DNA of 20,379 nucleotides from Sumerlaeia bacterium (GTDB lineage: Bacteria > Sumerlaeota > Sumerlaeia > SLMS01 > JAHLLQ01): contig JAVJSW010000082.1 of assembly GCA_040219255.1 (NCBI GenBank), positions 1 to 20,379 on the forward strand. The letters run 5' to 3'. The notes under the pieces are model-generated. The model worked only from the letters and a program-made list of their open reading frames with translations. It was not told the DNA's origin and did no database searches. The position numbers and the translations under genes are program-made. Position 1 is the first letter of the stretch. The number at the start of each line of letters is the position of its first letter. Shown one piece after another: positions 530 through 17,655 of this stretch.

Positions 530-1630
530 ATGATTCGAAGCATGATTCGTCCCCTGTCCGGTCTCGCGATCGCCGCTGTGTTGGCGGCGGGCGCGGTGTC
601 GGAGGTGAGGGCCCAAGGTGGATTCGCTGCGGGGGGGCTGGCTCCGCCGAGCGCGATGGACACGCTGAACGAGGGCGGCACGGGGCCGTCCGGAGGATTT
701 GGTATCGACCGGGCGCGTGGCGCGGTGGATCAGGCGAACGCGCGCGATCCTTTTGGCGGAGGCGGCGGTGCCGCTGCTGACCCGTTTGGTGTCGGTGGCG
801 GGGCGGCGGCCGATCCCTTTGGCGGTGGCGGGGGGGCGGATCCCTTCGGCGGCGGCGGGGGAGATTTCGCGGCGTCCGGTCCGGCGTTCGTGGATCCGGG
901 TCAGGTGCCCGGGGCGGCGACGCCGGGGGTGAATGTGCCGCGGATTCAGGTGATCTGGGGCGAGCGCATCATCGACGCGAACACGGGAGAGATCCTGCAG
1001 GACGCGCGTAAGCTGCGCGTGCCGTCGCTGGTGCAGAACGAGTATTACAACGACGGCGAGCAGGGGATGGATTTCGAGGCGGACGACCGGGTCTGGACGA
1101 ACGTGACGTTGCGCGACGATGTGGTGTCGCCGGAGACGCACTTTATCAAGACGAAGCTGCTGCGGGCGCTGGAAGTGGCGGAGAACACGGACCCGATGCG
1201 GTTCGCCGGGGTGCGGGTGGCGACGTCGGAGCAGCTTTCGACGGTGCCGAAGATTCTGGATTTGGAAGCGGAGCGCGACGAGAAGCTGAAGCAGTGGGCG
1301 CAGCGGTTCCTGCGCGATTTCCGCACCGATCCGGACAACGACGATCCGGCGAGTTTTTCGTTCGTGGAGACTTACATGCCGGCGCCTCCGCGGGTGCCGG
1401 ACGTGAATATCCCAGCGAGTTTCGCTCCGCCGCAGGCGAGTGCGGGCGGCGCGGGAGCGGGCGGCCTGGGGCCGACGGGCGGTAATATCGGCGCGGGGAC
1501 CCGCGGCGGTGTGCGGAACGCTTTCAGTGTGGATACGATTCAGGACAGCCCGGGAGCTTCGAGTTCGTACTTCGGTGGCGGCAACGCGAGCGGGGTCTCG
1601 GTGGTCGACAGCCAGGTCGGCGGGTTTTGA
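530..1630 (+). CDS. Exported Gly/Pro-rich hypothetical protein with DPF repeats and a choice-of-anchor-X-like acidic motif
   Basis: Start moved from 452 to ATG 530 because of the RBS and promoter. Sec signal MIRSMIRPLSGLAIAAVLAAGAVSEVRA|Q. Contains four DPF-Gly repeats, a central folded region with YNDGEQGMDFEADDRVWT, and a low-complexity C-tail. Confidence 0.85.
   Translation: MIRSMIRPLSGLAIAAVLAAGAVSEVRAQGGFAAGGLAPPSAMDTLNEGGTGPSGGFGIDRARGAVDQANARDPFGGGGGAAADPFGVGGGAAADPFGGGGGADPFGGGGGDFAASGPAFVDPGQVPGAATPGVNVPRIQVIWGERIIDANTGEILQDARKLRVPSLVQNEYYNDGEQGMDFEADDRVWTNVTLRDDVVSPETHFIKTKLLRALEVAENTDPMRFAGVRVATSEQLSTVPKILDLEAERDEKLKQWAQRFLRDFRTDPDNDDPASFSFVETYMPAPPRVPDVNIPASFAPPQASAGGAGAGGLGPTGGNIGAGTRGGVRNAFSVDTIQDSPGASSSYFGGGNASGVSVVDSQVGGF
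746..868 (+). repeat. Intragenic imperfect tandem repeat encoding (A)DPFGGGGG x4 plus a final DF
   Basis: DPFGGGGGAAA-DPFGVGGGAAA-DPFGGGGGA-DPFGGGGG-DF. Codons differ synonymously between copies (gatcctttt, gacccgttt, gatcccttt, gatcccttc). Confidence 0.9.
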
Positions 1631-1737
1631 TCGCGGGATATGAACTTGAGAAAAGGCGATTTGACGTTGCGCCCGCGGGCGGGGCGGGTCCAAGTGGCGA
1701 CTGAACCCCCGGAAGCAAGGCGGAACGCATCCTGACC

Positions 1738-2244
1738 ATGAAGACGCAGCAGGTGGACGAAGCCCTGGCGGTAGCTCAGCAGACACTGGAGCAGTGGCTG
1801 AGTTTCCGAAAGTTCATGCTCAAGGCTTTCTCCGACGATCCTCTGGCGGCGGAGGAGGAGACGAATTTCCTGGACGTGAAGAGCGCGATGACGCGCAACA
1901 CGCGGGCGCTGGACGAGTGTACCCGGGCAGCCGGCAAGCTCGATTACGGCAGCAAGGAAATCCAGGAGTTGCGCAACAAGTGCGTGTCGATGCAGCACCT
2001 GCGGGGTCTGCCTCAGAACGACCGGCTAGGTTTGTATCAGGAATGGCACAAGGTGTTCGTGCGGCTGAGCCGTACGGTGGGTGCCTTTAAGTTTATGTCC
2101 GAGGGTTTTGTGCCCGCGGATCCGAAGAAGAAGAAAAAGGGAGGCAAAGGCGGTGGTGGCGGCAAAGGCGCCATGATCGGTGTGGTGGTTGCCGTCGTCG
2201 TGTTGGGCGGGGCGGCCGCCGTGTACTTCCTTTTCCTTGCCTGA
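1738..2244 (+). CDS. Tail-anchored helical hypothetical protein (paralogue A)
   Basis: 168 aa with no N-terminal signal. Soluble helical domain, then a KKKKKGGKGGGGGKG linker, then one C-terminal hydrophobic helix (AMIGVVVAVVVLGGAAAVYFLFLA). Aligns by eye with 5778..6194. Confidence 0.85.
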   Translation: MKTQQVDEALAVAQQTLEQWLSFRKFMLKAFSDDPLAAEEETNFLDVKSAMTRNTRALDECTRAAGKLDYGSKEIQELRNKCVSMQHLRGLPQNDRLGLYQEWHKVFVRLSRTVGAFKFMSEGFVPADPKKKKKGGKGGGGGKGAMIGVVVAVVVLGGAAAVYFLFLA

Positions 2245-2376
2245 CGTCATTTTTTATGGCGGCGGGGGGTTGACGATTCCGCTTGTCTTTGCTTGCGCCT
2301 CTCTGCGCGGCATTCGTGAATGCGGTGAATCGACTCTCTGTCCGCAGCCCTGACCTGTCCCTGGAGGCTCTCATCC

Positions 2377-5300
2377 ATGAAGTTCCGCCGGAGCGCGCCC
2401 CTTCGCAAGACATTGCTTATCGCACTGGTGATCTCGACCGGCATCGGTTTGAGCGGCTGTCAGGGTGTGCGCGCGAATAACGCCATCAAACGCACGCAGA
2501 CCTTGCTCGAGGAGATGGCCAGTCTGGACGGCGAAGAGCACGCGCCCGATCAGATCACGCAAATCCGAGAGCTGGTCAACAACGCGACCCAGCAGCTGTC
2601 CGCCGATAACGCGGGTCAGGCTCTTCAGCAGGCTCAGCAGGCGAAAGACCTGGCCGAGCGGACTCTGATCGAAGTGGAAGCGGCGGAAGCCCGCGACCTC
2701 TGGGAAGAATCCCAGCGCGAGATCGAAGTCGCCGACATCAACCAGCTCAACCGCCTCGACACGAATCTCTACCAGCAGATCATCCTTCTGCAGGAAGAGG
2801 GCCGCGAAGCCCGCAACAATAACGAATACGCCACGATGATCAACGTCTCGCGCGAGATCATCGACAAAGTGACGACTGGTCTGGCGGATGTGAAGGCCAG
2901 CGCCGAGAAGGCGCAGGACGAGGCGCAGGCCCAGTTGCAGCGCCTGCGCACGGAAGGCGGCCAGGAATACACACCGGAAACGGTGATCTCGGTGACCGAC
3001 TCGCTCGAGCGCGGGACACAGACGCTCGAAGAGAAGCGCGACTACATTTTGGCCGAGAACATCTTCAACGACGCCGCGTCCGACGCCACCCAGGGCATCG
3101 AGAACGTGCGGCGCCTGAAGGCGAGCGAGGAAATCGAGCGCATCGAAAACCTGCTGGCCGTGGCCAGCCAGGAAGGCGCGCGGGAGTTCCTGCCGAACGA
3201 ATTCGAGAGCGTGGTCAAGACCCTCGAGTCGCTGCTGGCGAACTTCGCCGACAACCGCTACAATTCGGTCATGGTCGGTGCCCGCGAGCTTCGTCCCCGC
3301 GTGGAGGCGTTGGTGATCGACACCAAACGCGCCGCCGCGGATTCCCGCATCGAAACGATCCGCCGCGACATCTCCGACCTGGTCGAGGGCGGCGCCCGCG
3401 AGTACCTGCCGGAGCAGTTGGCGGAATTGGAAGAGTACCTGGTGGCGGCGCAGGAAGTGCGCCGCAGGGACACGGAAGAAGCGTTCGACGAAATCAAAGA
3501 GATCGCCCGCGAAGCCGCCGACGAAGCGGACAAGATCAACCGTGCCTTCGACGATCTGGCGGCGGAAGCGATCCGGTTGGCCAATAATCGTCTGGATACG
3601 GTGCAGGAAGTTTATCGCCAGGTGCCTCAGATTTTCGAGCCCATCGAAGGCATCGAAGGCATGTCGTCCTTCGATCAGGCGAAGGAAGCCCGCACGGTGC
3701 AGTTGGGCGAAGAGATCGAGCAGTCCCGCCAGAACCTGCGCGTGGCGGCTCAGCGCCAGCGCAGCGGGCGGTTCAAGAGCGCGATCGAACTGAGCGAGCA
3801 GCAGGCCCGCATCGCCGACCGGCTGCTGGGCGAGGTTTACCGCCTTGTGGCTCAGAACGCCGCGATGGAGTTGGCGAACCTGATCAGCCGCTACGAGCGT
3901 GATGGCGCCCGCCAGTACGCCGAGGAAGAATTGGAGCGCAGCAAGCGGGACTTGCAGCGTGTGAAAGACGCGATCAACCGCGGCGATTTCCTGCTGGCGA
4001 CAGAGTTGGCTTCAGCCGCCCGCGCCAATGTGGAATTGACGGCTCAGCGCATTTCCGGCCGCGCCGTGGAAAGCATTCAGCAGGCCCGCGCCGCGGCGCA
4101 GGGCGCACGCAACGCCAAGACCGAGCGCTTCAGCCAGTCGCAGCTCAACCAGGTCGCCGACCTGATCGCCCAGGCGGAGCGCGACTTGAAGGACAATCGT
4201 CTCAAGAGCGCGGTGGAAACCGCCAATCAGGCCACCCAGTTGGCCCGCCAGGCCGAGGCGACTGCCAACCGGCTGGCGGCGGAAGAAGCCATCGAGGAAG
4301 CCGGATCGAAGATCGCCCGGGCGGAAGCCGCCGGAGCGGCCCTCTACGCCGGTCCGCAGATCGAAGCCGCCCGTAACCTGCTGAGTTCGGCCCAGCGCCT
4401 GAGTTCGGCGGGTGAATTCCTCCAGGCGGAAGAGCAGGCCAGCGCCAGCGCCGAACGCGCCGACCAGGGCTTCTACCGTCTCGTGGACGAAGCGGACGCC
4501 TTTATCGCCGACGCGAAAGCGGTCGGTGGCTGGGACTACAAGACCGATCAGTTGGCCCAGGCCAGCGCTCTGACGCGCCAATCGCGCGAGCAGTTGCAGG
4601 CCGGGCAGTTCGAGGAAGCCATCTCCAAAGCGCGCAAGGCCCAATCGCTGGCCCGCGATGTGGCTGGGAGCACGAAGAACTACAACTTCGAAGAGGCCGT
4701 GGAGCGCATCCGCAAGAACCTCGACGAGGGCGAGGATCAAGGCATCAATTACTTCCAGGTGGGCGAGTCGATCGACGTGCGTCAGCGCCTGGTGGAATTG
4801 CAGAACCGCTACGACCTTGAGGTTTACGAGGAAGTGATGGCGGCGATGCAGGAACTGGAAGCGGATCTGCGGCGCACTCTCGACTCGACCGACCAAGTGG
4901 TGGAGACGGTGGCGACGCAGCAGGGTCAGCGGCTGGACTTCCTGATCGAGCGGGGAGCCCGCAATTTCGCCGACGATCTGGCCCGCGCGGCGCGCCGGAA
5001 CCTGCGCCTCGCGCGTGAAGATTACGCCAAGGGTCTCTACAAGCCGGCCCACAGCGCCCTGGACCTGGCCATCGATCAGATCAACGAAATCGAAGCGCGA
5101 TTCCTGCAGGAAATGTATTCCCGCCGGATGAACGAGCTTTACCGCGAGTACGCCCAGGCCCAGGCCGGTTTCAAGAACGTCTTGCAACTCGGTCCGACGG
5201 AAATGAAGGAACTGGCCTTTGGCAGCTACGCCCGGGGCAACGCGGTGGCCATCGCCAGCCAACTGACGCCGAACGAGTTCCGCGCCCAGGTGGAGTTGAT

Positions 5301-5580
5301 CTACTCGAAGGCGGCACAGATCGAGCCGCCGGCCGGGCTGGAGACCTTCCACGAGGAGTCGGTGCGCGCCCTGAACCTCGGCCGTATCGCCGCCATTCAC
5401 TTCGAGAAGCTGATTATTCTCGATGTGGCCTCCGGACGCGAGGCGGAGCGCTTGATCGATGTGGCGTACGCCCGCATCAACGAGTCGAACGCGATTATCG
5501 CCGACCTGAAGCGCGACTTCTTCGACGACGAAGTGCGCTTCCGGCTGGTGACGGCGGATCTCGGCGGCGTGTCACGCTAA
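2377..5580 (+). CDS. Large alpha-helical lipoprotein with tandem ~72-aa DUF4398-like repeats
   Basis: 1067 aa with a GGAGG RBS. Signal peptide with lipobox LSG|C. Ala/Glu/Arg/Gln-rich. Recurrent G-A-x-x-[YF]-x-P-x-x motif (GGQEYTPE, GAREFLPNE, GAREYLPEQ, GARQYAEEE, GAALYAGPQ, GARNFADD). Confidence 0.9.
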   Translation: MKFRRSAPLRKTLLIALVISTGIGLSGCQGVRANNAIKRTQTLLEEMASLDGEEHAPDQITQIRELVNNATQQLSADNAGQALQQAQQAKDLAERTLIEVEAAEARDLWEESQREIEVADINQLNRLDTNLYQQIILLQEEGREARNNNEYATMINVSREIIDKVTTGLADVKASAEKAQDEAQAQLQRLRTEGGQEYTPETVISVTDSLERGTQTLEEKRDYILAENIFNDAASDATQGIENVRRLKASEEIERIENLLAVASQEGAREFLPNEFESVVKTLESLLANFADNRYNSVMVGARELRPRVEALVIDTKRAAADSRIETIRRDISDLVEGGAREYLPEQLAELEEYLVAAQEVRRRDTEEAFDEIKEIAREAADEADKINRAFDDLAAEAIRLANNRLDTVQEVYRQVPQIFEPIEGIEGMSSFDQAKEARTVQLGEEIEQSRQNLRVAAQRQRSGRFKSAIELSEQQARIADRLLGEVYRLVAQNAAMELANLISRYERDGARQYAEEELERSKRDLQRVKDAINRGDFLLATELASAARANVELTAQRISGRAVESIQQARAAAQGARNAKTERFSQSQLNQVADLIAQAERDLKDNRLKSAVETANQATQLARQAEATANRLAAEEAIEEAGSKIARAEAAGAALYAGPQIEAARNLLSSAQRLSSAGEFLQAEEQASASAERADQGFYRLVDEADAFIADAKAVGGWDYKTDQLAQASALTRQSREQLQAGQFEEAISKARKAQSLARDVAGSTKNYNFEEAVERIRKNLDEGEDQGINYFQVGESIDVRQRLVELQNRYDLEVYEEVMAAMQELEADLRRTLDSTDQVVETVATQQGQRLDFLIERGARNFADDLARAARRNLRLAREDYAKGLYKPAHSALDLAIDQINEIEARFLQEMYSRRMNELYREYAQAQAGFKNVLQLGPTEMKELAFGSYARGNAVAIASQLTPNEFRAQVELIYSKAAQIEPPAGLETFHEESVRALNLGRIAAIHFEKLIILDVASGREAERLIDVAYARINESNAIIADLKRDFFDDEVRFRLVTADLGGVSR

Positions 5581-5625
5581 CCCGAAACCCCCGCGGAGAG
5601 TTTTTTCGAGCAGGACCGGACACCG

Positions 5626-5745
5626 ATGGATTTCTTCAACAAGATCAACTACGTCTACAAAGTCGAGATGTTGGCGATCCTCGGGATTGTCCTGCTGTTG
5701 CTGTACGTCTTCTGGGCGTTGAAAATCTTCGAGAAGAAGGAATAG
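5626..5745 (+). CDS. 39-aa single-pass membrane peptide (not in the ORF track)
   Basis: ATG 5626 to TAG 5743-5745 encodes MDFFNKINYVYKVEMLAILGIVLLLLYVFWALKIFEKKE. AGGA/GGA lies upstream, codons are C/G-ending like the neighbours, and there is one TM helix with a basic tail. It fills the gap between two co-oriented genes. Confidence 0.8.
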   Translation: MDFFNKINYVYKVEMLAILGIVLLLLYVFWALKIFEKKE

Positions 5746-5777
5746 CGCGGCGCAAGCGCGGCTGAGAGGGATCACCG

Positions 5778-6194
5778 ATGGCAGCAAAAGCGAAGGACAT
5801 CTTGTCGACGGAGAACCGCATCCTGGTGGTGCGGGAGTACGCGAACCTGTGGCAGCAGTTTTTCACGTTTTTCTCGGAAGATCTGCGCGACCGCCAGATC
5901 ACCCAGCAGGAAGAGCAGGAATTCCAGCAGATCGTGTCCGTTCTGGCTCTGAACCACTACAAGTTCGAAGTGCTGTCGGCCGATGTGTTCAAGGACGCCG
6001 GCAAAATCACGGATGTCCTCAGCCAAACGGTGAACCTCAATCATATCAAGAATCTGCCGGACGCCACCTTCAGCAAAATCCAGGTCGATTGGCACACGCT
6101 CTTTCTCGGCATGCACAAAGCACTCGGCAAACTGCTCAACGAATTGCCGCCAAAGCGACTGGCGGAGTTGCAACAGCAGGGCGTCGTCGGATAA
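5778..6194 (+). CDS. Soluble helical hypothetical protein (paralogue B)
   Basis: 138 aa with a GAGGG RBS. Shares W-x2-F-x2-F...EE-x2-F-x4-S and H-x3-LP-x10-WH-x2-F-x7-G with 1738..2244. No TM segment. Confidence 0.88.
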   Translation: MAAKAKDILSTENRILVVREYANLWQQFFTFFSEDLRDRQITQQEEQEFQQIVSVLALNHYKFEVLSADVFKDAGKITDVLSQTVNLNHIKNLPDATFSKIQVDWHTLFLGMHKALGKLLNELPPKRLAELQQQGVVG

Positions 6195-6237: not shown

Positions 6238-7395
6238 TTGACCTCCTTTGCGGATATTGACCCACAAGACATCAAGCTCGACTGCCGGTTTTACTCGGGT
6301 TACAAGCCGTGCCATCGCCACGATGGATGCCCCGGCTGCCCGGTCTACGAACCGCGCGGCACGGAGATTCTCATCGTCAAGCTCGGCGCCATGGGCGATG
6401 TGCTGCGTACGAAATCGCTGCTGCCCGGGCTCAAGGCGCTCCACCCCCAGTCCTGGATCACTTGGATCACGGCACCGGGCAGCGAGCCGATCGTGCGCGA
6501 CCCGCGGGTGTCTGAAATTCGGACCTTTACGCCCGCCGGTCTGGCGGCCCTGGAGGGGCGCCGCTTCGATCTCATGCTGTGCCTGGACAAAGACGCCCAC
6601 GCCGTTGCCCTCGCCCGCGGGGTGGATGCCACGCGCAAGCTTGGCTTCGCGCCAACGCCCTTCAATACGATCACGGTGTGGAACGAAGCGAGCGCCTACG
6701 CGCTGCGCCTGGGCCTGAGCGACGATCTGAAGTACCGCATCAACCGCAAGACGGTGCCGGAAATCCTCTACGAAATGGCGGAACTGCCTTACGGGGGACA
6801 GGCTTACGAGCTGACTCTTTCGCAGGAAGCGCGCGACCGGGCCGGCGAGCGACTCGCCGGGGTCGGCCTTCCACAAGGCCGGCCGATCGTCGGGCTCAAT
6901 ACTGGGTGCGGACCGGTGTTCGCGACGAAGGCGTGGACGGCGGCCGGTTTCGCGGACTTGATCGCGCGCCTCGCGAGCGACCCGGAGGGCCCCAGCGTGC
7001 TTCTCCTCGGCGGGCCGAGGGAGCGGGAGCTGAACGCGGAAATCGCCCAGGCGGTGTCCGGGAAGGCCGGCGTGGGCGGCCGGCTTTTCGATGCCGGAAC
7101 CGACAATGACCTGGAAACTTTCTTCGCGCTGATCGAGCGGTGCGCCGCCGTGGTCTCCGCCGACTCGCTGGCGATGCACGTGGCGGTGGCGCTGCGGGTG
7201 CCGGTGGTGGCGTTTTTCGGTCCGACCTCGGCCCAGGAAATCGACCTGTTCGGGCGGGGTGAGAAAATCGTCACGGACTATGCCTGCGCGCCCTGCTATT
7301 TGAAGAGCTGTAATGTCAAGCCTCGCTGCCTGACGGTGATGGAGGCGGCGGAGGTCGAGGCGGCGTTGCGGCGCGTGATGGCGGGGGTCGGCTGA
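6238..7395 (+). CDS. Glycosyltransferase family 9 (ADP-heptose:LPS heptosyltransferase-like)
   Basis: Motifs ILIVKLGAMGDVL, K-x-W (TKAW), ADSLAMHVAVALRVPVVAFFGPT and C-terminal CAPC are typical of GT9. There is an extra N-terminal Cys cluster. The TTG start is uncertain. Confidence 0.9.
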   Translation: MTSFADIDPQDIKLDCRFYSGYKPCHRHDGCPGCPVYEPRGTEILIVKLGAMGDVLRTKSLLPGLKALHPQSWITWITAPGSEPIVRDPRVSEIRTFTPAGLAALEGRRFDLMLCLDKDAHAVALARGVDATRKLGFAPTPFNTITVWNEASAYALRLGLSDDLKYRINRKTVPEILYEMAELPYGGQAYELTLSQEARDRAGERLAGVGLPQGRPIVGLNTGCGPVFATKAWTAAGFADLIARLASDPEGPSVLLLGGPRERELNAEIAQAVSGKAGVGGRLFDAGTDNDLETFFALIERCAAVVSADSLAMHVAVALRVPVVAFFGPTSAQEIDLFGRGEKIVTDYACAPCYLKSCNVKPRCLTVMEAAEVEAALRRVMAGVG

Positions 7396-9107
7396 TGGAG
7401 TCCCCCGCAATGGCGACCGGCACGGAAAGCCGCCCTTCCCAGCCCGCTGCGCGTCGCGGCGTTCCGCTTTGGCGGCGCCCATCGTTTTGGCTCCAGGTGG
7501 CTCTGCTTCCGGCGTTGATTCTCTGCGTTCTGCTGGCGTTCCGCACGATCGGACGCTCGTCATCGAGCCTGGAGTACCCCTTCCAACTCGATCGCGAGGA
7601 AGCGTTCTTGCTGGATCAGGCGCTGCATCTGTCGCGCGGCGAGACGATTTACCCCTCGCTGGACGATTACCCATACACCGTGGGCAACTACCCGCCGGTG
7701 TATCCGATGATCTACGGGGCGGCGATTCGATGGCTTCCGGCGCTTCAACCCTCGCTTCCGGCGGGGCGTTTGCTGGTACTGGTGGCGGGCCTGATCGCGA
7801 TTTCGGTGATCGTGAACGCGATCTTGCGCGACGCGCGGTCGATCGCTCCGGCGCTCCTGGCCGGAGCTCTGGTGTTCATGACCTGGGATGCGTGGAACTG
7901 GATCGCCTTTGCGCGGGTCGATTGGCCGGCTCTGGCGTTGGGGTTGTTGGGCTTGGCCGTCTCCACCAGCCAACGGCGGCGGCCGGCGGCGATCTTTGGC
8001 AGCCTGCTTTTCGCCCTCGCGTTCTTCACGAAGCAGACACAGATTTTGGCGCCCATGGCGGTTTTCGGGGCGTACCTTTGGCGCCGCGAATTCCGCGTCG
8101 CGGCAGAGTTCGCCTTCCTCATGACGGTGTGGGTCGGCGGCGGCCTGGCGTTTCTGACGATCCTGACGGGGGGGCAATTTTTTCGCCACACCGTCCTCTA
8201 TAATGTGAACGCGTTCGATCCCGGTCAGATCGTGTTTTACCTGAAGCACCTCTGGCTATTCGAGCGCTGGCGCCTCGTGGCGACTCTTCTGGCGTTTCTG
8301 TTCGTTCCGCTGGCGGTTTGGCTGTGGCCGGAGCGCGGCGGCGCATCGGAAGAGACCCCCGAGGACAGCGCCCGCAAGAGTCCCGAGCCAACAGTTCTCT
8401 TTCCCGCCGCGGGGATTTACCTGGTGCTGGCGGTGGCCTCCATCGCCAGCACGGGCAAGGCCGGAGCGGCGGTCAATTATCTGCTCGAATTCCACGCGGC
8501 GGCGGCGCTGTTCCTGGGGCTTTGGCTGGCGCGGTGGACGCGTGAAGCGGACGCGGCGGACCCCGCCGTGCGCGCGTCCCGCCTGACGATGGTGGGCCTT
8601 CTGATCCTCTTTCTCAGCGCCCACGCCGTCTGGCACGGCTACGGCCGCGTGCGTCAGGCTTTCCAGGCGGGGGACCTGGACGCCCTGATGCTGGTGTACG
8701 ACGGTGTGCTGCGGCGCGTGGTGATGACGGATGGGCCGGTGCTGTCGGAGGAGCCGATTTTCGTTTTGCTCGCCGAAAAGGACGTCCTGTTCCAGCCCTT
8801 TATCATGAGCCGGCTGGCCGCGGAAGGGGCCTGGGACCAGGCTCCCTTCCTCGAGGACTTAGAATCGGCGAAGTTCGGCCTGATCGTGACAACGCAGGAC
8901 CTTCGCGTGGAAGATCAGTTCTTTCAGGGATTCACGCCGGAGATGCGGCAAGCCATCGTGGACGCCTACGAGTTCGACCGGCAGATCGGCAGCTACTATT
9001 TGTATGTGCCGAAGACGCTGGAGGACACGCCGGACGGCCTGCCGCGCGACCGCTTCATCGTGGGCTGGGGTCCGGTGCCGCCGGGTCGCGGCCTGCCCGC
9101 GGCCTAA
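7395..9107 (+). CDS. Polytopic membrane glycosyltransferase, GT-C fold (ArnT/PMT/GT39-like)
   Basis: About 11-13 hydrophobic segments, with an acidic first loop (DREE) and the motifs YPPVY, ARVD and AFFTKQT. Has a C-terminal soluble domain. The start overlaps the GT9 stop (TGATG). Confidence 0.75.
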   Translation: MESPAMATGTESRPSQPAARRGVPLWRRPSFWLQVALLPALILCVLLAFRTIGRSSSSLEYPFQLDREEAFLLDQALHLSRGETIYPSLDDYPYTVGNYPPVYPMIYGAAIRWLPALQPSLPAGRLLVLVAGLIAISVIVNAILRDARSIAPALLAGALVFMTWDAWNWIAFARVDWPALALGLLGLAVSTSQRRRPAAIFGSLLFALAFFTKQTQILAPMAVFGAYLWRREFRVAAEFAFLMTVWVGGGLAFLTILTGGQFFRHTVLYNVNAFDPGQIVFYLKHLWLFERWRLVATLLAFLFVPLAVWLWPERGGASEETPEDSARKSPEPTVLFPAAGIYLVLAVASIASTGKAGAAVNYLLEFHAAAALFLGLWLARWTREADAADPAVRASRLTMVGLLILFLSAHAVWHGYGRVRQAFQAGDLDALMLVYDGVLRRVVMTDGPVLSEEPIFVLLAEKDVLFQPFIMSRLAAEGAWDQAPFLEDLESAKFGLIVTTQDLRVEDQFFQGFTPEMRQAIVDAYEFDRQIGSYYLYVPKTLEDTPDGLPRDRFIVGWGPVPPGRGLPAA

Positions 9108-9865
9108 CCCCGTCCGCCGACCATCGACATTCCGCCGTCCACCGGCAAACGCACGCCGGTGATGAAGTTCGACTCGATCAGGAAACGGGCGGCATGGGCG
9201 ATGTCTTCGCCGCTGCCCCAGTGCTTGACCAATGTGTTCTCAGCGACTTTGGCCTTTTCCTCGTCACTCGTGCCGGGGGGCGGGATCATGGGGCCGGGGG
9301 CGATGGAATTGACCATGATGTGCGGGGCCAGCTCCTTGGCCAGGGCGCGGGTCAGCGTGTCCAAACCGCCCTTGGCGGCGTGATAGGCGCTGTGGAAACG
9401 ATAGGGCCGAATCACCGCCCAGTCCACGATGTTCACGATGTGGGCGGGGCCGGGGCTGGATCTCCGCAGGAGCGGCAGGGCGAGCTGGGCGCAAAGGAAC
9501 GGACCGTGGAGATTGACTGAGAGGGCCTGGAAGAACGCCTCGTCGGCGATGTCTTCGAAATGGCCTTTGTCAAAGGTGGAAGCGCTGTTGACCAGCGCGT
9601 CCAGGCGGCCGAACTCGGCGTCGATTTCCGAGACGATTCGTGTCACGTCGGTGCGGCGGGTGTGATCGCCCTGAACGACGAGGGCTCGGCGCCCAAGCCG
9701 GTGGATTTCCCCGGCGGTGGCGTCCGCTTCCTCGCGCGAGCTACGGCAGTGGACGACGATGTGGGCGCCGTGGCGGGCGAGTTCGAGAGCGATGGCGCGC
9801 CCGACGCGCTTGGCGCTGCCGGTGATCCAGACGACTTTATCTTCGACGGTGTAGTGTTCGCTCAT
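9104..9865 (-). CDS. Short-chain dehydrogenase/reductase, pteridine reductase (FolM/PTR1)-like
   Basis: True start is ATG 9865 (MSEHYTVEDK), not 10744. Motifs TGSAKRVG, HCRSS, LVNSAS, NIVD (Asp in place of Ser), YHAAK, VNSIAPG and ITGVRLPVDGG. Confidence 0.9.
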   Translation of the reverse strand: MSEHYTVEDKVVWITGSAKRVGRAIALELARHGAHIVVHCRSSREEADATAGEIHRLGRRALVVQGDHTRRTDVTRIVSEIDAEFGRLDALVNSASTFDKGHFEDIADEAFFQALSVNLHGPFLCAQLALPLLRRSSPGPAHIVNIVDWAVIRPYRFHSAYHAAKGGLDTLTRALAKELAPHIMVNSIAPGPMIPPPGTSDEEKAKVAENTLVKHWGSGEDIAHAARFLIESNFITGVRLPVDGGMSMVGGRG

Positions 9866-9936
9866 AATCGTTTCGCAATATGATGGTATGGTGATACGGC
9901 CATGGGCTGCTGCTTTCTGGGCGGCCCGGGCACGGT

Positions 9937-11256
9937 CTATCGCCAGGGCAGCAAGGATCGTCCCGCCGAGGGCAGGGTCACGCCGGCGGTTTGATCTTCC
10001 ACGCCTTCGGGAATCTTGCCGGAGGCCAGGGCGTTGAGAACGGCCTGAGGGCCGCCGCCCTGGGCTTCGATCTGAGCGACGACGCGATAGGCGACGCCGT
10101 AGAAATCGGAGCGGCGGCGGAGTCGGTCGAGGCCCGAGCGTCGGCCGTGGCGATAGCAAAGCTCCTCGGCCATCCATTGGGCGAAGCCTTCGGAGAGGAA
10201 GGGATCGGAGAGGCGGGGGTAGTGCTGATGCTGCCAGGCGTGGGCCATTTCGTGAGCGATCGTTTCCCAGGCGCTGTCTTCCGTCAAGCGATCGACGATC
10301 AGGATTTCGCGCTGGCCAAAGGTGCGGACCCGGAAGAGGCCCATATTGTGGACGGTGCGATCGGGGTCGTCGTTGGCGAGGCCGGTCATGGAGGGATCGG
10401 CGCCGGCCATGGCGGCGTCCAGTTCCTGCTGGCTGACGGCGCGGATTTGGGGGAGGCTGAGGGGTTTGCCGAGGAGGGACTGGAAGTCCTGGGCGAGGGA
10501 CTTGGCGATTTCGCCGTACATGGTCTCGCCGGCGAGGGCGTTGCCGCTGCATCGGGCGCAGTGAAGGCGGCCGTCCGGCAGGGTGGTGGCGGCTGTGCTG
10601 TCCATCGGAACCAAGCAGGAGTCGCAGCGGGGCATGGCGGTGAAACAGGTTTCGCACCATTCGCCGGGGATGTTCTGGAAGCCGTGGATCGAGCCGCTGA
10701 TGGGTTGAGTGCAGAGATCGCAGAAATGGGTCAGGGCGAGGCACTGGCCGCAGAAGGCTTTGCCGGAGCGCAGGGTCAGGTCATCGGCATTGTGTGGTAT
10801 TCCACAGGAAGCACAGGCCGGTTTCGACGTTTTGCAATCGGAGCAAACTTGCGTCTCCTGGCCGGTGGCCGAGCGATAGTTGGTGTACTTGCCCGAGATG
10901 ACGTTGCGGCAGAGGTCGCACCATTGAGCGTCGCGGCGGCATTGATGGCAAAGGACGGCGCCGTTACGGGGGGCGGTGCCTCGGACGGGGATGGTGCAGA
11001 GCGCGCATCGGGCCGAACGCTGGGCGCAAGTTTGACACACATCGACGCCGGGCGCGCCTTGGCGATCGAAGTGTAGGTAGTTGCCGGAAATCCTGGCGCG
11101 GCACATGTCGCAGTCCAGGGCCAGCGCCGGGAAGGAGGGCAAGACGAGGAGGATGGAGAAGAGGGCGGTGAGGAGAAAGGGAAAGCGACGGTGTGGAATG
11201 GCCGGGGCTCCGGAGAGGGATTCTACGGGGCGCAGGCTATGCGAAGAGGACGCCAA
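9937..11256 (-). CDS. Exported Cys-rich (12 CxxC, LIM-like) zinc metallopeptidase, DA1-like
   Basis: Signal peptide RRFPFLLTALFSILLVLPSFPALA|L followed by twelve CxxC motifs. C-terminal TIAHEMAHAW, then SEGFAQW and DFYGVAY. The TTG start is uncertain. Confidence 0.8.
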   Translation of the reverse strand: MASSSHSLRPVESLSGAPAIPHRRFPFLLTALFSILLVLPSFPALALDCDMCRARISGNYLHFDRQGAPGVDVCQTCAQRSARCALCTIPVRGTAPRNGAVLCHQCRRDAQWCDLCRNVISGKYTNYRSATGQETQVCSDCKTSKPACASCGIPHNADDLTLRSGKAFCGQCLALTHFCDLCTQPISGSIHGFQNIPGEWCETCFTAMPRCDSCLVPMDSTAATTLPDGRLHCARCSGNALAGETMYGEIAKSLAQDFQSLLGKPLSLPQIRAVSQQELDAAMAGADPSMTGLANDDPDRTVHNMGLFRVRTFGQREILIVDRLTEDSAWETIAHEMAHAWQHQHYPRLSDPFLSEGFAQWMAEELCYRHGRRSGLDRLRRRSDFYGVAYRVVAQIEAQGGGPQAVLNALASGKIPEGVEDQTAGVTLPSAGRSLLPWR

Positions 11257-11270
11257 AGCTCAACGGAACT

Positions 11271-11777
11271 CTATTGGGCTTCGTCGATGCGGAAGAGAGC
11301 CCACTGGGCGACCCATTGAACCCAGCCGGCTTTGTCGTTTTCCATGCCGGAGAGGGTGGCGACGGCGTCGCGGGCCATGGGGCCGATTTCGCCGAGGGCG
11401 CGGGCGGCGCCCCACCGGACGTTGTCCTCGGGATCGGAGAGGGCGTCGATGAGGCGGGGGACGACGCGGCCGGGGGAGGCGCGGCCGAGGTCGCGGAGGG
11501 CGTGGGCGGCGGCCCACTGGATTGGCTGGTAGGGATCGCGCAGGAGCGCCTTGAGTTGATCGTAGGCGGGAATGGCGGCGTCGCCGGCCATGCCGAGGGC
11601 GCGGGCGGCTGCCCAGCGAATGTTGCGTTCTTTGTCTTCGAGGGCCTCGCGGAGGAACTGCAATCCCCCGGGGGATTGGGCGTGCTCCGCCAGATCCCGC
11701 AGGGCACGATAACTGCGGGCGGGGTTCGGCCCCGAGGCCAAGCGCAGAAGGTCGTTCAGTGTAGTCTGATCGGACAC
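11271..11777 (-). CDS. HEAT/PBS-lyase repeat protein
   Basis: Repeats IRWAAARALG, IQWAAAHALR, VRWGAARALG and VQWVAQWAL. The probable start is GTG 11777 (MSDQTTLNDL), because the 11852 start overlaps the divergent gene. Confidence 0.88.
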   Translation of the reverse strand: MSDQTTLNDLLRLASGPNPARSYRALRDLAEHAQSPGGLQFLREALEDKERNIRWAAARALGMAGDAAIPAYDQLKALLRDPYQPIQWAAAHALRDLGRASPGRVVPRLIDALSDPEDNVRWGAARALGEIGPMARDAVATLSGMENDKAGWVQWVAQWALFRIDEAQ

Positions 11778-11811
11778 GGAAGTCGGCCAGCTCTCATGCA
11801 GGAGTCCAGGA

Positions 11812-12813
11812 ATGCTCAGGAATTGGATACGTAGAGGCCAGCGAGGCGTCAACAGGCTGCTGAGGGTTTGGCTGCCGGTTATGGCGTTGAGCCTGGCGGG
11901 CGCGCCGGCGGTCTTTGGCGAGGACTTTGAGCGGCTGGTGATTCTGGGCGACAGCCTGAGCGATTACGGCAACGCCACGGCGGCGGTGGACGCGGCGGGT
12001 ATCCGGACGGAGTTTCCCCCTTCGCCGCCCTACGCGGAGGGCCGGCTCAGCAACGGGCCGTTGTGGATCGAGCAGTTCGCCGATCAGTGGCCTTTCGCCT
12101 CCGGCGAGCGGGTCAGCTATGCGTTCATCGGCGCCGCGACGGGCCGGGACAACGTGCTCGACAGCACCGGTCAGGTGGACCTGCCGGGCCTGAGGGACGA
12201 GTTGGAGCTTCTGGTGGCGGACTTCCCGGCGAGCGACTCGTTGCGCGGGGCTCTCGTCTCGCTGTGGATCGGGGCCAACGATTACGATTTCACGGAGGAG
12301 GCTCTGGAACTGGTGCCGGGGGTTATCGCCGAGACGCGGGCCGGACTCGAGCTGCTGATCGCCCACGGGGCCGAAACCATCGTGGTGCCGAACTTGCCAA
12401 ACCTGGGGCTGACGCCAAGGGGCGCGATGGCGGCGGACGTGGCGACGGCTATCGCGGTGTCGCACAACCTCGCGCTGGAGATGATGCTGGACGATTTGGC
12501 GCGGACGACGGGAGCGCTCTTGATTTCGGTGGATGTCTTTGATCTGACGCAGCGCATCGCCGCGGACCCCGGCGCCTACGGCTTCACCGATGTCAGCGTG
12601 CCGTGCGTGATCTTCGTGCCGCTCTCGATCTGCGGCGACGCCAGCGGCAAGGTCTTCTTCGATGACCTGCATCCCACAACGAAGGCTCACGGCTTCATCG
12701 CCGAGGAAGCGCTGCGGACGGTGCGCGAGGCGCTGGGCGGTCCGCGAAGCCCGTCGGGGTGGATGCTTTACGGCGTGGCCGTGGGATCGGTGGCGGGGAA
12801 AGCTTCTTCGTAG
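11812..12813 (+). CDS. Exported SGNH/GDSL esterase/lipase
   Basis: AGGAG RBS and a signal peptide. Blocks GDSLSDYG, GRLSNG, YAFIGA, WIGANDY and FFDDLHPT. Confidence 0.93.
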   Translation: MLRNWIRRGQRGVNRLLRVWLPVMALSLAGAPAVFGEDFERLVILGDSLSDYGNATAAVDAAGIRTEFPPSPPYAEGRLSNGPLWIEQFADQWPFASGERVSYAFIGAATGRDNVLDSTGQVDLPGLRDELELLVADFPASDSLRGALVSLWIGANDYDFTEEALELVPGVIAETRAGLELLIAHGAETIVVPNLPNLGLTPRGAMAADVATAIAVSHNLALEMMLDDLARTTGALLISVDVFDLTQRIAADPGAYGFTDVSVPCVIFVPLSICGDASGKVFFDDLHPTTKAHGFIAEEALRTVREALGGPRSPSGWMLYGVAVGSVAGKASS

Positions 12814-13643
12814 GGACGGGGCTCGGCGCCCTGGATCTCGCCGCCGATGCTGGCGGAGGGGTGGACGAAGAGTTCCACGGGGCGTTCGAATTTCAGGCCG
12901 CCTTCGATCTCGACGTCCGGGCCGATCAGGATGCGGGGCGGGCCGGGGGGACTCTGGGGCAGGCGGTCATTGCGGTAGATCGACACGCCCTCCTCGACCT
13001 TTGCGCCATCGGCCAGGGTGATGTCGCCAAAGGCGGACTTCACGCCGCCCTTGACCTTGCCGCCACGGATCGTGATGGCGCCGCTGACGGTGTCGACTTT
13101 GTCCGAGACGCGAACGCCATCCAGGGTCACGGTGCCGGAGATGGATTCGACGCGGCCGCCGACCTTGCTCTCCGGACCAAAGGCGATGTTGCCGGAAAGG
13201 ACCTCGACATTGCGGCTGACGGAAACGTTTTCGCCGCCGGTCACGTTGCCGGAAACGCTTTCGATGGAGCCTTCGACGAAGTTCGATCCGGCGAGGGTCA
13301 CATTGCCGCTGGTCATTTCGATGGGGCCGGTGGAGCCGCCTTCGCCGATTGTCAGATTGCCGCTGACGATGCCGATGCGCCCGACGACGGCGAAGTTGCC
13401 GACTTCCACATTGCCGCTGCCGCTGTCGATGCTGGCGAGGATGGCTCCGTCGGCGATCACGAGGTTGCCCGAGCGGGAGGTGACGCGCTGCTGGGGGTCG
13501 CCTCCGGCGGGAATGAGGAAGGCCTCGGTGGTGACTTGTGTCAGGCCGGGGGGCTGGGAAGGACCGTGGTTGCAGCCGACCACGGCGAGTAGGGCGCACG
13601 CGGCGAGGAGGGTGGGGGCGGAGATGGAAAAAGGCGGCTTCAT
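12768..13643 (-). CDS. Lipoprotein with beta-strand repeats (DUF4097/adhesin-like beta-helix)
   Basis: Start ATG 13643 (MKPPF...LLAVVG|C lipobox). About ten [VI]-x-x-x-SG-[NTA]-[VIL] repeats. C-terminal PPRILIGPDVEIEGGLKFERPVELFVHPSA. Confidence 0.85.
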   Translation of the reverse strand: MKPPFSISAPTLLAACALLAVVGCNHGPSQPPGLTQVTTEAFLIPAGGDPQQRVTSRSGNLVIADGAILASIDSGSGNVEVGNFAVVGRIGIVSGNLTIGEGGSTGPIEMTSGNVTLAGSNFVEGSIESVSGNVTGGENVSVSRNVEVLSGNIAFGPESKVGGRVESISGTVTLDGVRVSDKVDTVSGAITIRGGKVKGGVKSAFGDITLADGAKVEEGVSIYRNDRLPQSPPGPPRILIGPDVEIEGGLKFERPVELFVHPSASIGGEIQGAEPRPYEEAFPATDPTATP

Positions 13644-13677
13644 AGCGCCCGAATGAGAAGCGAGACCCGGGCCGCCG

Positions 13678-14169
13678 TCAATGCCACTGCTCGTCGCCGA
13701 TGATGAGGCCGACGACGGCGGGGCGGCCGTATTCTTCGGCGTACTGTTTGGCAAGGCGGACGGCGCTTTCCTGGTCGGGACAGAGGGCGACGAGGTCGCT
13801 GGTGGGATGCTCGCGGTGGGGCTCCTGGAGAACCATGTGGACGCGGTGGAGCCAATTGCCGCGGGAGGGGACGCCGGGCAGTTCGCGGGCTTTGAGGTCC
13901 TGGGCGCTGCGCTCCCGGTTGTGGGAGGGATGGGCGCAATGGATCATCTGGAAGGTCCAGAGTTGAGCGTAGCCCATGGGGATGATGCTGGTGAGTTCAT
14001 ATCCGTGGTCGATGCGGCTGAGGAGCAGGGACCAGCGGTGGACGGTGCGATTGGTCAAGTAGAAGAAATAGAGGGTTTGGCTGCAATCGCCCTGGATTTC
14101 AAAGGGAGTGCGTCCCGGGAAGGCTTCTCCGGGGATGCCTTCGAAGAAGAAGCGGCTGAGTTGCACCAT
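13678..14169 (-). CDS. Hypothetical cytoplasmic protein, 163 aa
   Basis: Globular-looking composition. Sits 10 nt after the upstream stop and 34 nt before the next start on the same strand. No family recognised. Confidence 0.75.
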   Translation of the reverse strand: MVQLSRFFFEGIPGEAFPGRTPFEIQGDCSQTLYFFYLTNRTVHRWSLLLSRIDHGYELTSIIPMGYAQLWTFQMIHCAHPSHNRERSAQDLKARELPGVPSRGNWLHRVHMVLQEPHREHPTSDLVALCPDQESAVRLAKQYAEEYGRPAVVGLIIGDEQWH

Positions 14170-14179
14170 GGTCCGTGTG

Positions 14180-15814
14180 TCAGTTGCCGTGGCTGGCGGC
14201 GGCGGCGGTTTCGATCAGTTCCTCTGGGTCGACGCTTTCGCCGTAGCGGGCGTAGAGGAGCCACTGGTTGTAGAGGTCGAATTCCTGGTCCGAGGAGAAT
14301 TTCTGGGGCTTGTAGGTGCGGCCGGTGAAGAAATTTTCGACGGTGTGGGAAATATGGGCTTCGGGGCAGCGGTCTCGCAGGCAGATGAGGAGGCGCTTCC
14401 AGGCTTCGAGCGGATCGGCTTTCACGCCGTCGCGGTTCATTTCGATTTCCTGCTCGACGCTGCGGAAGCTGAACTGGCCGGCGCGCAGGCGGTAGTGCTT
14501 GCTGGGCAGGTTGCAGTACAGATCGATGACCGGTTGGCGGTCGAGGCGGCCGGTGGAGAGCAGGCGGACGTGCTCCCAGCGGGCTTTCTTGACGCCGCGC
14601 AGAGTGCTGAGCTTCATGCCCGGTTCGAGGAAATCGAGCTTCAGGACGTCGAAGCGTTTGTGGGGGCGCAGGGCGCGATCGACGGCCACGAAGTAGAGGG
14701 GCTGGGGGATGTCGCGGATTTTGGGGAACATCTCCAGCACGTCGTCGAGGCTGAGGCGGTCGAGAAGAAGTCCCTTACGTTCGACGACGGCAGTCTTGGC
14801 TTCGCCTTCGGTCATGCCGCGGACGCGCTTGAGGGCCTCGGCGACATCGTCGAGGCGTATGCGCTGGCCCGGGGGCAGGAGCAGGGCGAAGCGGGCGCCC
14901 TGAAGGCGGTAGAAGCGCTCCATGGGGGTTTCGTCCTCGCCCCAGCCCTGGTCTTCCACATGGTGGAAGTCTTCGTCGTCGCCCTCGTTGGAGATGACTT
15001 CCGACGGGGGGACGGGGGGGCGCGGGGCGGCGGGCGGCCGGGCGGGGGGATTGGCGCGGCGGTTCGGGGGCGAGGCCATGGTTTCCGCTTCCGAGCCGGG
15101 CTGGCTGAGCATGGCGCCGGGAGTTGGGCCGCCGAAGAGGTCGGGAGGAGGGGGGGCGCCTTGGTCGATGGGGGCGGAAAAATCCCCGGGGCTGGGGGCG
15201 ATGGTGTGCTCGTGGACGTCTTCGATGACGAGGGGGCTGCTGGCGGCGCCGGGGACGTCGCTGGGCGAGAGGGTTTCTTCGGCTCCCAGGATGTAGAGGT
15301 TGTCGGAGTCGAGGGCCTCCATTTCCGGATCGTCTTCTTCGACGTCGGTATCGAGGAGGCTGCGGGGGCCCATGGAGACGGATTGGGGGTTGAGACCGCC
15401 GCGGCGGGGGTCGCGCAAGCCATGGCCATCGGGGAGGGCCTTGAGGATTTCTTCGGCGTCGCGGCGGTCGTTGGCGTTGGGGTCGGTCTTGAGGAATTCC
15501 TCGAGGAAGCGGCGGCAGTCGTGGTTGCGCTTGAGGCGCTGGCAGAGGTGGCCGGCGCTGCGAAGGGCGACATTCCAGGAGGGATGATCGTTCATGTGAA
15601 CGATGAGCTTCTCGTAGGCGTTGAGGGCGAGATCGGGTTCGTTGCCAAGCTCGAGGAGGCGTGCGAGGTCGAATTGCAGGGAAGGCTTGAGGAGTTCGCC
15701 GGGCGCGATGTCCAGCAACTCCTGATAGGCGCGGGCGGCGCCCTGGCTCTCGCGCATAAAGACCGAACGGCTCAGGCGGGCGAGGATGTCATCGCGGCGC
15801 GGATCGTCGCTCAT
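14180..15814 (-). CDS. Hypothetical protein: N-terminal TPR region, acidic/Pro-rich linker, C-terminal folded domains
   Basis: Start ATG 15814 with GGAGG upstream. TPR-like helices (AARAYQELL, ALNAYEKLI, CRRFLEEFL), a long P/D/E-rich linker, then a ribosomal L7/L12-CTD-like segment and a beta-rich domain. Confidence 0.85.
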   Translation of the reverse strand: MSDDPRRDDILARLSRSVFMRESQGAARAYQELLDIAPGELLKPSLQFDLARLLELGNEPDLALNAYEKLIVHMNDHPSWNVALRSAGHLCQRLKRNHDCRRFLEEFLKTDPNANDRRDAEEILKALPDGHGLRDPRRGGLNPQSVSMGPRSLLDTDVEEDDPEMEALDSDNLYILGAEETLSPSDVPGAASSPLVIEDVHEHTIAPSPGDFSAPIDQGAPPPPDLFGGPTPGAMLSQPGSEAETMASPPNRRANPPARPPAAPRPPVPPSEVISNEGDDEDFHHVEDQGWGEDETPMERFYRLQGARFALLLPPGQRIRLDDVAEALKRVRGMTEGEAKTAVVERKGLLLDRLSLDDVLEMFPKIRDIPQPLYFVAVDRALRPHKRFDVLKLDFLEPGMKLSTLRGVKKARWEHVRLLSTGRLDRQPVIDLYCNLPSKHYRLRAGQFSFRSVEQEIEMNRDGVKADPLEAWKRLLICLRDRCPEAHISHTVENFFTGRTYKPQKFSSDQEFDLYNQWLLYARYGESVDPEELIETAAAASHGN

Positions 15815-16056
15815 GGTGCGGCTTCGTCCCTCCAACTTGGCGGTTTCCCATCGGTGGGTGGTGACTCCGGGGGAAAAGCGTCTCGACTTCCACAGGGGAA
15901 GAATAAGAGGAATTTTCCGGTTCCTGGAGTGAAATCAAGGGAAAGGCGGAGCCGATGGTCCGATTTTTCCCCTCACCAGTTCTTCCTCAGGTGTACAGGA
16001 AGAGATGGGAATCCTTCAATATGAATCGAAATTTCTAGGGCGCGAAAGCGGGCGGG

Positions 16057-17547: not shown

Positions 17548-17574
17548 AGGGGTTCGGTCTCCGTCGAGGGTCCT

Positions 17575-17604
17575 TTCCGGTATGTCGCTCCGTCAGGCTA
17601 CAAT
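17575..17604 (+). promoter_or_regulatory. Possible promoter for the GT operon
   Basis: TACAAT at 17599-17604 with a weak TTCCGG 18 bp upstream, in the divergent AT-richer gap. Confidence 0.35.
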
Positions 17605-17655
17605 CTTTATGCCCGCTGAAGTTCAAGTCAATTCTGGCCTCGGGGTTGGCCGAGA

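Follow-up and report, generated by a model that had tools for sequence, protein, structure and literature searches.

A five-gene module conserved across Candidatus Sumerlaeota and its possible connection to type IV pili and DNA uptake

Five co-oriented genes, here designated g1 to g5, occupy positions 530-6194 of a contig from a Sumerlaeia bacterium (JAVJSW010000082.1, assembly GCA_040219255.1). The window, that is, the whole stretch of 20,379 nucleotides (nt) analysed here, comprises this entire contig (C82 of the source genome, G000). The five genes form a phylum-wide syntenic module in Candidatus Sumerlaeota. Sumerlaeota (BRC1) is a phylum of global distribution, for which we know of no studied isolate and of no account of the envelope biology. 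Conserved sorting signals, namely a signal peptide in g1, a tail anchor in g2, a lipobox in g3 and a micro-membrane peptide in g4, accompany the gene order. Taken as a whole, our reading is of an operon-like Sumerlaeota module whose products would lie at and outside the inner membrane and serve type IV pili or DNA uptake as an accessory, and this composite is put forward tentatively. Regarding the role alone, we infer that an accessory scaffold of the type IV pilus or DNA-uptake apparatus is the most likely one, although it is held with considerable doubt. The role is proposed because a third paralogue of g2 and g5 is encoded between pilC and dprA and because comEA is located upstream of g1 in the deepest-branching lineages.

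Conservation of the five-gene module

All five open reading frames (ORFs), each on the + strand, were present as described in an earlier reading of the DNA letters alone, hereafter the sequence-only reading. The first gene, g1 (530-1630), encodes an exported, Gly/Pro-rich protein of 366 amino acids (aa) with a signal peptide. It is followed by g2 (1738-2244), whose 168-aa product is predicted to have a cytoplasmic four-helix bundle joined by a basic linker to a C-terminal tail anchor. The largest gene, g3 (2377-5580), encodes a 1067-aa lipoprotein with an LSGC lipobox that is predicted to be all-helical and to contain several DUF4398-like repeats. A 39-aa single-pass membrane peptide is encoded by g4 (5626-5745), and g5 (5778-6194) encodes a 138-aa protein, predicted to be a soluble cytoplasmic four-helix bundle and a paralogue of the g2 domain. 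The intergenic gaps g1-g2, g2-g3, g3-g4 and g4-g5 measure 107, 132, 45 and 32 nt. Pfam and NCBIfam scans of the five proteins yielded DUF4398 in g3 as the sole family. A PADLOC scan gave no match for g1-g4 or for g0, a gene found upstream of g1 in some relatives, and one weak match for g5 (PDC-S67, E 0.0014, 16 bits). The sequence-only reading had been unable to assign the genes to any named system, and Pfam, NCBIfam and PADLOC yielded none either, so that the five genes do not all map to a known system. Judged by sequence, the parts of the module other than DUF4398 appear to belong to no known kind of system.

To describe the distribution of the module, related genomes were compared. The g3 gene was detected in 40 of 41 of them, including all 26 of high quality, and the sole miss (G035) is 82% complete. 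In the 20 loci fetched around the g3 matches, tblastn recovered g1, g2, g3 and g5 without exception (20/20), always co-oriented and in one order, and detected g4 in 12. A second set of 35 loci, which shares genomes with the first and is not independent of it, was picked by a g5 peptide pattern alone and scanned with hidden Markov models (HMMs) of the five proteins. The full ordered five-gene set was identified in 31 of the 35. Two of the four incomplete loci (L041 and L057) were truncated by contig ends, a third (L061) had g3 split into two ORFs and no detectable g4, and the fourth (L047, G075:C55) held only g4-g5 at the locus itself. Two genomes, G041 and G074, represent other classes of the phylum, and both (2/2) carried all five genes in order. 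The g5 profile matched 74 of 75 genomes of the phylum, among them all 43 of high quality, as a rule three times in each. The flanks, of which 57 proteins were scanned, vary widely between loci. The sequence-only reading had made its case dependent on synteny in other genomes and had proposed a comparison of neighbourhoods across Sumerlaeota; in this comparison the order was kept phylum-wide, and the five genes stand as one conserved unit. Since it is conserved across the phylum, the arrangement is far beyond chance.

Predicted products and the modelled g2-g5 contact

The most hydrophobic 19-residue window of g2 spans residues 149-167 of 168, at the extreme C-terminus, and g5 contains no hydrophobic segment. 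The view of g5 as a paralogue of tail-anchored g2 was borne out by BLASTP (E 1e-5) and hhalign (98.7%, E 3.6e-16 over 109 columns). The tail anchor was present in 18 of 21 g2 orthologues, the remaining three ending in basic tails. A structure predicted for g5 showed an up-down helical bundle with a predicted local distance difference test (pLDDT) score of 92.6 and a predicted template modelling (pTM) score of 0.83. Foldseek returned no match to this model at E <= 0.001. The best VIA match was QseG (9m08_D; Z 10.2, root-mean-square deviation 4.6, 120 residues aligned), but helical bundles reach a VIA Z of ~13 by chance, so a QseG-like fold was rejected as lying within this noise and no family was named. 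A sequence search of solved structures gave no match with E below 0.2, whether run with profiles of g5, g2, g1 and the third paralogue or with the single g3 sequence. Against 1.84 billion representative sequences, the g5 profile matched no more than 329 proteins at E <= 0.001, of which 145 passed 1e-10 and 36 passed 1e-30, which indicates a small family. From these models and searches, g2 and g5 are predicted to be generic four-helix bundles of that family. The ESM Atlas placed g5 in unnamed clusters only, labelled mostly Verrucomicrobiota. Some g5 orthologues (P0022, P0025 and P0029) were fused to an N- or C-terminal TM2 domain or to N-terminal membrane helices, fusions in keeping with a position on the cytoplasmic side of the membrane. 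A 366-aa protein (P0047/P0164) from a Limisphaerales bacterium, a metagenome-assembled genome (MAG) of Verrucomicrobiota, is made up of the g2/g5 domain three times in tandem, and outside Sumerlaeota it alone gives clear evidence of the family.

A complex of g2 residues 1-130 with g5 was modelled and scored 0.88 in three runs, in comparison to 0.00 for the best of three controls. This mark was attained by 116 of 157 solved complexes and by 2 of 215 mismatched pairs, counts that are only a rough guide because our own alignments were used. The runs agreed in at least 96% of contacts, and the partner pLDDT was at least 87. In the modelled interface, the last helix of g2 (97-126), which carries the conserved WH..F and GA.KF..EG motifs, packs against residues 53-62 and 78-89 of g5. 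The model supports binding of g2 to g5, although homodimer-forming paralogues could produce a model of the same kind. The sequence-only reading had proposed an envelope-spanning complex of all five products; one subunit contact of that complex has gained support in this way, and the model covered this pair alone.

For g3, the lipobox LSGC places the Cys at residue 28. The pattern [LVI][ASTVI][GAS]C at the end of the signal peptide was found in 19 of 21 orthologues (Cys at 23-32), and the other two (L027 and L028) showed the near-matches SSGC and GFGC. Together with the g2 tail anchor described above, this indicates that the complementary locations predicted by the sequence-only reading are kept in relatives. 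The protein matched PF14346 (DUF4398) in Pfam over three stretches, with an E value of 9.7e-09 and 36 bits against a cut-off of 27.9. When g3 was scanned in 140-aa pieces, four further matches of 26.4-27.5 bits appeared, each just below the cut-off, and weaker ones elsewhere. The precomputed Pfam label PF14346 was likewise attached to g3 and two relatives, and a GA(R)x[YF] motif recurred at six places. The g3 sequence is accordingly read, at the level of sequence comparison, as a long array of diverged DUF4398-like helical repeats. A word-based homologue search with g3 was swamped by low-complexity candidates and returned three proteins, one of which bore a Candidatus Poribacteria label. A partial 804-aa relative with 51% identity (P0172) is labelled 'Candidatus Poribacteria bacterium', which may reflect the mis-binning of a contig or a genuine presence beyond Sumerlaeota. 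Longer g3 versions of 1179-1228 aa occurred in one family (L030:8391-11930 and L031:8456-12142), where the break of the tblastn match near query residues 565-612 suggests an insertion between repeats.

We know of no function for DUF4398, and no functional study of it was found in the literature. In the available part of one report, DUF4398 is listed with a LysM peptidoglycan-binding domain in Leptospira LipL71 (PMC5406399), and in that of another, Pseudomonas aeruginosa PA2901 is given as a 13-kDa DUF4398 protein (PMC12893005). As a lipoprotein matching PF14346 above the family cut-off, g3 resembles these small lipoproteins. However, the listed members are small or combine one copy of the domain with LysM, whereas g3 has 1067 aa and would contain many diverged copies. 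Unlike LipL71, g3 is without a peptidoglycan-binding domain and is placed in a fixed five-gene module.

The g1 gene starts with ATG, with the Shine-Dalgarno sequence AAGGAGA 6 nt upstream, and its signal peptide ends at VRA|QGG. A conserved N-terminal motif, a Gly-rich stretch with four DPFG repeats, a conserved core, a Pro-rich tail and the sequence SSSYF follow in this order. A [ST]SxY[FYI] motif was found within the last 35 residues of 15 of 21 orthologues, often at the extreme end. In the predicted model, the core (~131-300) reached a pLDDT of ~88-95 and the rest stayed below 50, and the Gly-rich and Pro-rich arms are predicted to be disordered. The core is modelled as an alpha/beta fold, with a beta sheet against two long helices. 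Foldseek gave no match to it at E <= 0.001, and the best VIA Z was 5.2, covering only the two helices (199-284), so that the beta part (138-199) was barely probed. Within this limit, the core may be a novel domain, to which no solved structure was matched. The ESM Atlas gave no usable match to g1, its own model being poor (pLDDT 0.36).

In the g4 peptide, the conserved motif NYVYxVE on the N-terminal side of its one membrane helix is paired with a basic C-terminus. The HMM detected it between g3 and g5 in every locus of the second set but L061 (34 of 35), with E values down to 2.7e-23, and it is present in both genomes from other classes. Given the basic C-terminus and the positive-inside rule, the NYVYxVE motif would face the periplasm.

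In the arrangement proposed here, the soluble g5 bundle would dock on the last helix of the g2 bundle, and the g2 tail anchor would thereby hold g5 at the cytoplasmic face. The g2 anchor and g4 would form the membrane part, and the periplasmic part would comprise the outer motif of g4, the ~1070-aa helical-repeat g3, and g1 together with its flexible arms rich in Gly and Pro. The membrane part would couple the cytoplasmic g2-g5 pair to g3 and g1; since g2 is without a periplasmic part, the link would have to pass through the helices by which g2 and g4 cross or enter the membrane, or through the lipid that anchors g3. No component of the outer membrane was identified.

Alternatively, the five genes may be co-regulated without forming one assembly, such that only g2 and g5 bind each other and g1, g3 and g4 are separate. 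The g2-g5 contact is the only one with a model behind it, g2 offers no periplasmic segment to touch g1 or g3, and in L047 the g3 gene lies ~11 kb downstream of g4-g5, on the same contig and strand. However, the five-gene order, with a gene of only 39 aa among the five, persists through at least three classes despite flanks that differ, and conserved order amid changing flanks is the usual signature of physically interacting products. The absence of one joint assembly is considered improbable. In L047, tryptophan-synthesis and CoA-binding genes precede g4-g5.

The third paralogue, comEA and the possible pilus connection

Many of the g5-profile matches were proteins of ~340 aa in which an N-terminal g2/g5 domain is followed by a membrane helix and then by a C-terminal domain that matches no family. 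This third paralogue aligned with g2 at 99.3% in hhalign (E 4.4e-20). In the source genome it has 333 aa and is encoded on contig C39 (L133:5093-10588, - strand) in the order pilB-pilC-paralogue-dprA. The PilB protein contains T2SSE and MshEN and scored 660.7 bits against TIGR02538, just under the cut-off of 675.65; PilC contains a T2SSF domain, and DprA scored above the cut-off of TIGR00732. This PilB also carries an MshE-type cyclic di-GMP motif, and large family-less proteins of 463, 279, 1592 and 1027 aa flank the cluster.

The same neighbourhood was examined in 55 metagenome loci holding the third paralogue with our own HMMs, and Pfam confirmed the families in 18 long loci; these contigs may all be from Sumerlaeota. 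T2SSF was directly upstream of the paralogue in 33 of the 43 loci with enough flank, T2SSE was upstream in 15 of 28, and DprA was directly downstream in 26 of 36. The HMMs of g1, g3 and g4 found no match in the 55 loci. A relationship between the periplasmic domain of the third paralogue and g1 was considered and rejected (hhalign probability 0.3%). Among ten PilC-adjacent paralogues, Pfam identified no PilM_2, PilN, PilO, PilP, GspL or GspM family.

The second observation concerns comEA, which encodes a periplasmic DNA receptor. It was found directly upstream of g1 and on the same strand in 3 of the 20 loci of the first set, in 5 of the 35 of the second and in both genomes from other classes. 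The ComEA protein at these sites has a tandem HHH_3 domain and scored above the cut-off of TIGR00426, and at 92-150 bits against the TIGR01259 cut-off of 152. The distribution suggests that comEA-g1 is an old arrangement, retained in several deep lineages while other flanks changed.

Type IV filament systems offer a comparison. As in PilMNOP(Q) of type IVa pili and GspL/GspM of type II secretion systems, the predicted products of the module are distributed over the cytoplasm, the inner membrane and the periplasm, with a lipoprotein among the last. Parts of the alignment type are often encoded directly after pilB-pilC, and this is where the third paralogue, with its cytoplasmic head, membrane helix and periplasmic domain, was found. 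In contrast to PilMNOP and the Gsp proteins, the module shares no sequence match with those families, and its cytoplasmic domain is modelled as a four-helix bundle and not as an actin-like fold. It also differs from PilMNOP in its place away from pilB/pilC, in a genome with pilM and secretin genes of its own elsewhere. Type IV filament genes are abundant in the source genome, with 8 secretin, 20 T2SSE and 16 T2SSF domain matches on at least seven contigs, and the available text of PMC8092238 reports type IV pilus genes in all of its MAGs.

A more specific form of the pilus reading, slightly less probable than the general role, is that the module and the PilC-adjacent paralogue are new, Sumerlaeota-specific parts of the type IV filament or DNA-uptake machinery. 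A four-helix-bundle adaptor family would then dock on the PilB/PilC platform from the cytoplasm, and g3 and g1 would work with ComEA in the periplasm, for instance as a scaffold at the base of the pilus or as a DNA track or reservoir. Model competence systems would offer no homologue of any of these parts.

Several observations weigh against a pilus or DNA-uptake role. The module never adjoins pilB/pilC in the loci examined, and dprA adjoins the third paralogue and not the five-gene module. Among the 57 proteins flanking the module, no T2SSE, T2SSF or secretin was found, save an MshEN-domain protein in L029. Searches of g1-g5 against Pfam and NCBIfam at E values up to 1 gave no PilM/N/O/P/Q, Gsp or Com family. 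The source genome has a canonical pilM and eight secretin genes elsewhere, leaving no visible gap in its pilus systems. In the taxonomic order of the window, comEA is located elsewhere (contig C65) and the unrelated g0 precedes g1 instead, and the comEA adjacency could be an inherited accident. The domain shared by the paralogues is a plain four-helix bundle and could be a general dimerisation module. The split in L047 counts on the same side, and all loci come from one phylum, so that the counts given above are not independent. Other flank genes (PBP2, FtsK, SMC and OmpA) hint at different roles.

Some of these flank genes would fit a Sumerlaeota-specific scaffold for cell division or cell shape. 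PBP2-type transpeptidase genes were found upstream, on the opposite strand, in two loci (L020 and L029), FtsK and SMC were downstream in L024 and L032, respectively, and a D-Ala-D-Ala carboxypeptidase gene is located near the split copy in L047. Yet none of these neighbours was found in more than two loci, the strand is often the opposite one, the flanks are otherwise variable, and no divisome or elongasome family was identified in the module proteins by Pfam or NCBIfam. This reading is regarded as quite unlikely.

More weight is due to a role apart from pili, as a general scaffold or tether of the envelope. In that case g3 and g1 would organise the periplasm or peptidoglycan, anchored and regulated by g2-g5, with possible roles in spacing, outer-membrane tethering or stress buffering. 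The association of DUF4398 with lipoproteins, and with LysM in LipL71, agrees with such a role, as does an OmpA-family gene that precedes g1 in one locus (L025), and a housekeeping function in the envelope would be in line with the occurrence of the module in nearly all genomes of the phylum. On the other hand, no peptidoglycan-binding domain (OmpA, LysM or SPOR) was identified in g1-g5 by Pfam or NCBIfam, and a scaffold of this kind leaves both the paralogue inside pilB-pilC-X-dprA and the retained comEA adjacency unexplained. Possible but doubtful in itself, the pilus-independent scaffold is nearly as likely as the pilus role.

Flanking genes of the window and implications

Directly downstream of the module, a gene of glycosyltransferase family GT9 (6238-7395; Glyco_transf_9, PF01075, E 4.5e-20) starts 43 nt past the g5 stop, with no predicted terminator between. 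Its stop is overlapped by the gene of a 570-aa multi-pass protein (7395-9107), for which Pfam gave no match and NCBIfam only a weak one (E 0.0019); its 'GT-C' label, a reading from sequence, is putative. The sequence-only reading had suggested that the complex may be glycosylated or linked to the synthesis of lipopolysaccharide (LPS); this was examined here as glycosylation by these enzymes, or a functional coupling to them, in LPS or glycopolymer synthesis. The same adjacency was found in the closest relative, G001 (L013), and in no other of the 20 loci (1/20). In L014 the GT9/GT-C genes are ~3.5 kb off on the opposite strand, and among a further 37 loci GT9 was found in none and a GT-C-like fragment in one, ~8 kb off on the other strand. 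Since these neighbours are not conserved, a link to LPS or glycosylation is not supported; the coupling is largely refuted and very unlikely, and in this genus the module adjoins GT9 and GT-C by chance.

Upstream of g1, the window contains a sigma-70-like promoter candidate (TTGACG-17-TATTCT, 445-473, +) with 9 of 12 matches, which is weak evidence. Sites of this quality numbered two in 9.5 kb, as compared with 1.0 +/- 1.3 in shuffles, and the candidate is no more than chance expectation; the 'good sigma70-like promoter' of the sequence-only reading did not hold up. In relatives, another same-strand gene, g0 or comEA, occupies the position directly upstream of g1. The g0 protein has ~400 aa, a membrane anchor, a Pro-rich stretch and no family, and its gene immediately precedes g1 in 9 of 35 loci; within this taxonomic order, the module may include g0 as a sixth member. 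In both the source genome (contig C20; L033:835-2004, -) and G001 (L013:14293-15612, -), g0 is wedged between the genes of the large and small subunits of an aconitase-family enzyme. On C20 (1-3507, L033), the small subunit gene, g0 and the large subunit gene follow the order seen upstream of g1 in G001. A DDE transposase fragment (2-334, +; PF01609, E 2.3e-06) is located at the very start of the window. The start of C20 and this fragment suggest that the gap in the assembly between the gene of the small subunit and g1 is probably due to an insertion sequence element.

The remainder of the window (9104-20378) encodes a short-chain dehydrogenase/reductase (SDR; 9104-9940, -), a GDSL lipase (11812-12813, +), a histidine kinase (16057-17547, -) and two GT4-type glycosyltransferases (17656-18897 and 18675-20378, +), besides several further ORFs without a family.

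A literature search on Sumerlaeota, Sumerlaea and BRC1, including pili, found nothing on the five-gene module. A unit kept in nearly every Sumerlaeota genome marks a core cell-biological structure that current annotation has missed. Four of its five products are without a family, and one of them has a well-folded predicted domain unmatched in solved structures. The paralogue in pilB-pilC-X-dprA and the comEA adjacency provide the first concrete experimental handles. If the pilus connection is true, the module would add new parts to the type IV pilus and transformation machinery, which was thought to be well catalogued. If it fails, the module would still be a clean target for structural genomics and for cryo-electron tomography of enrichment cultures.

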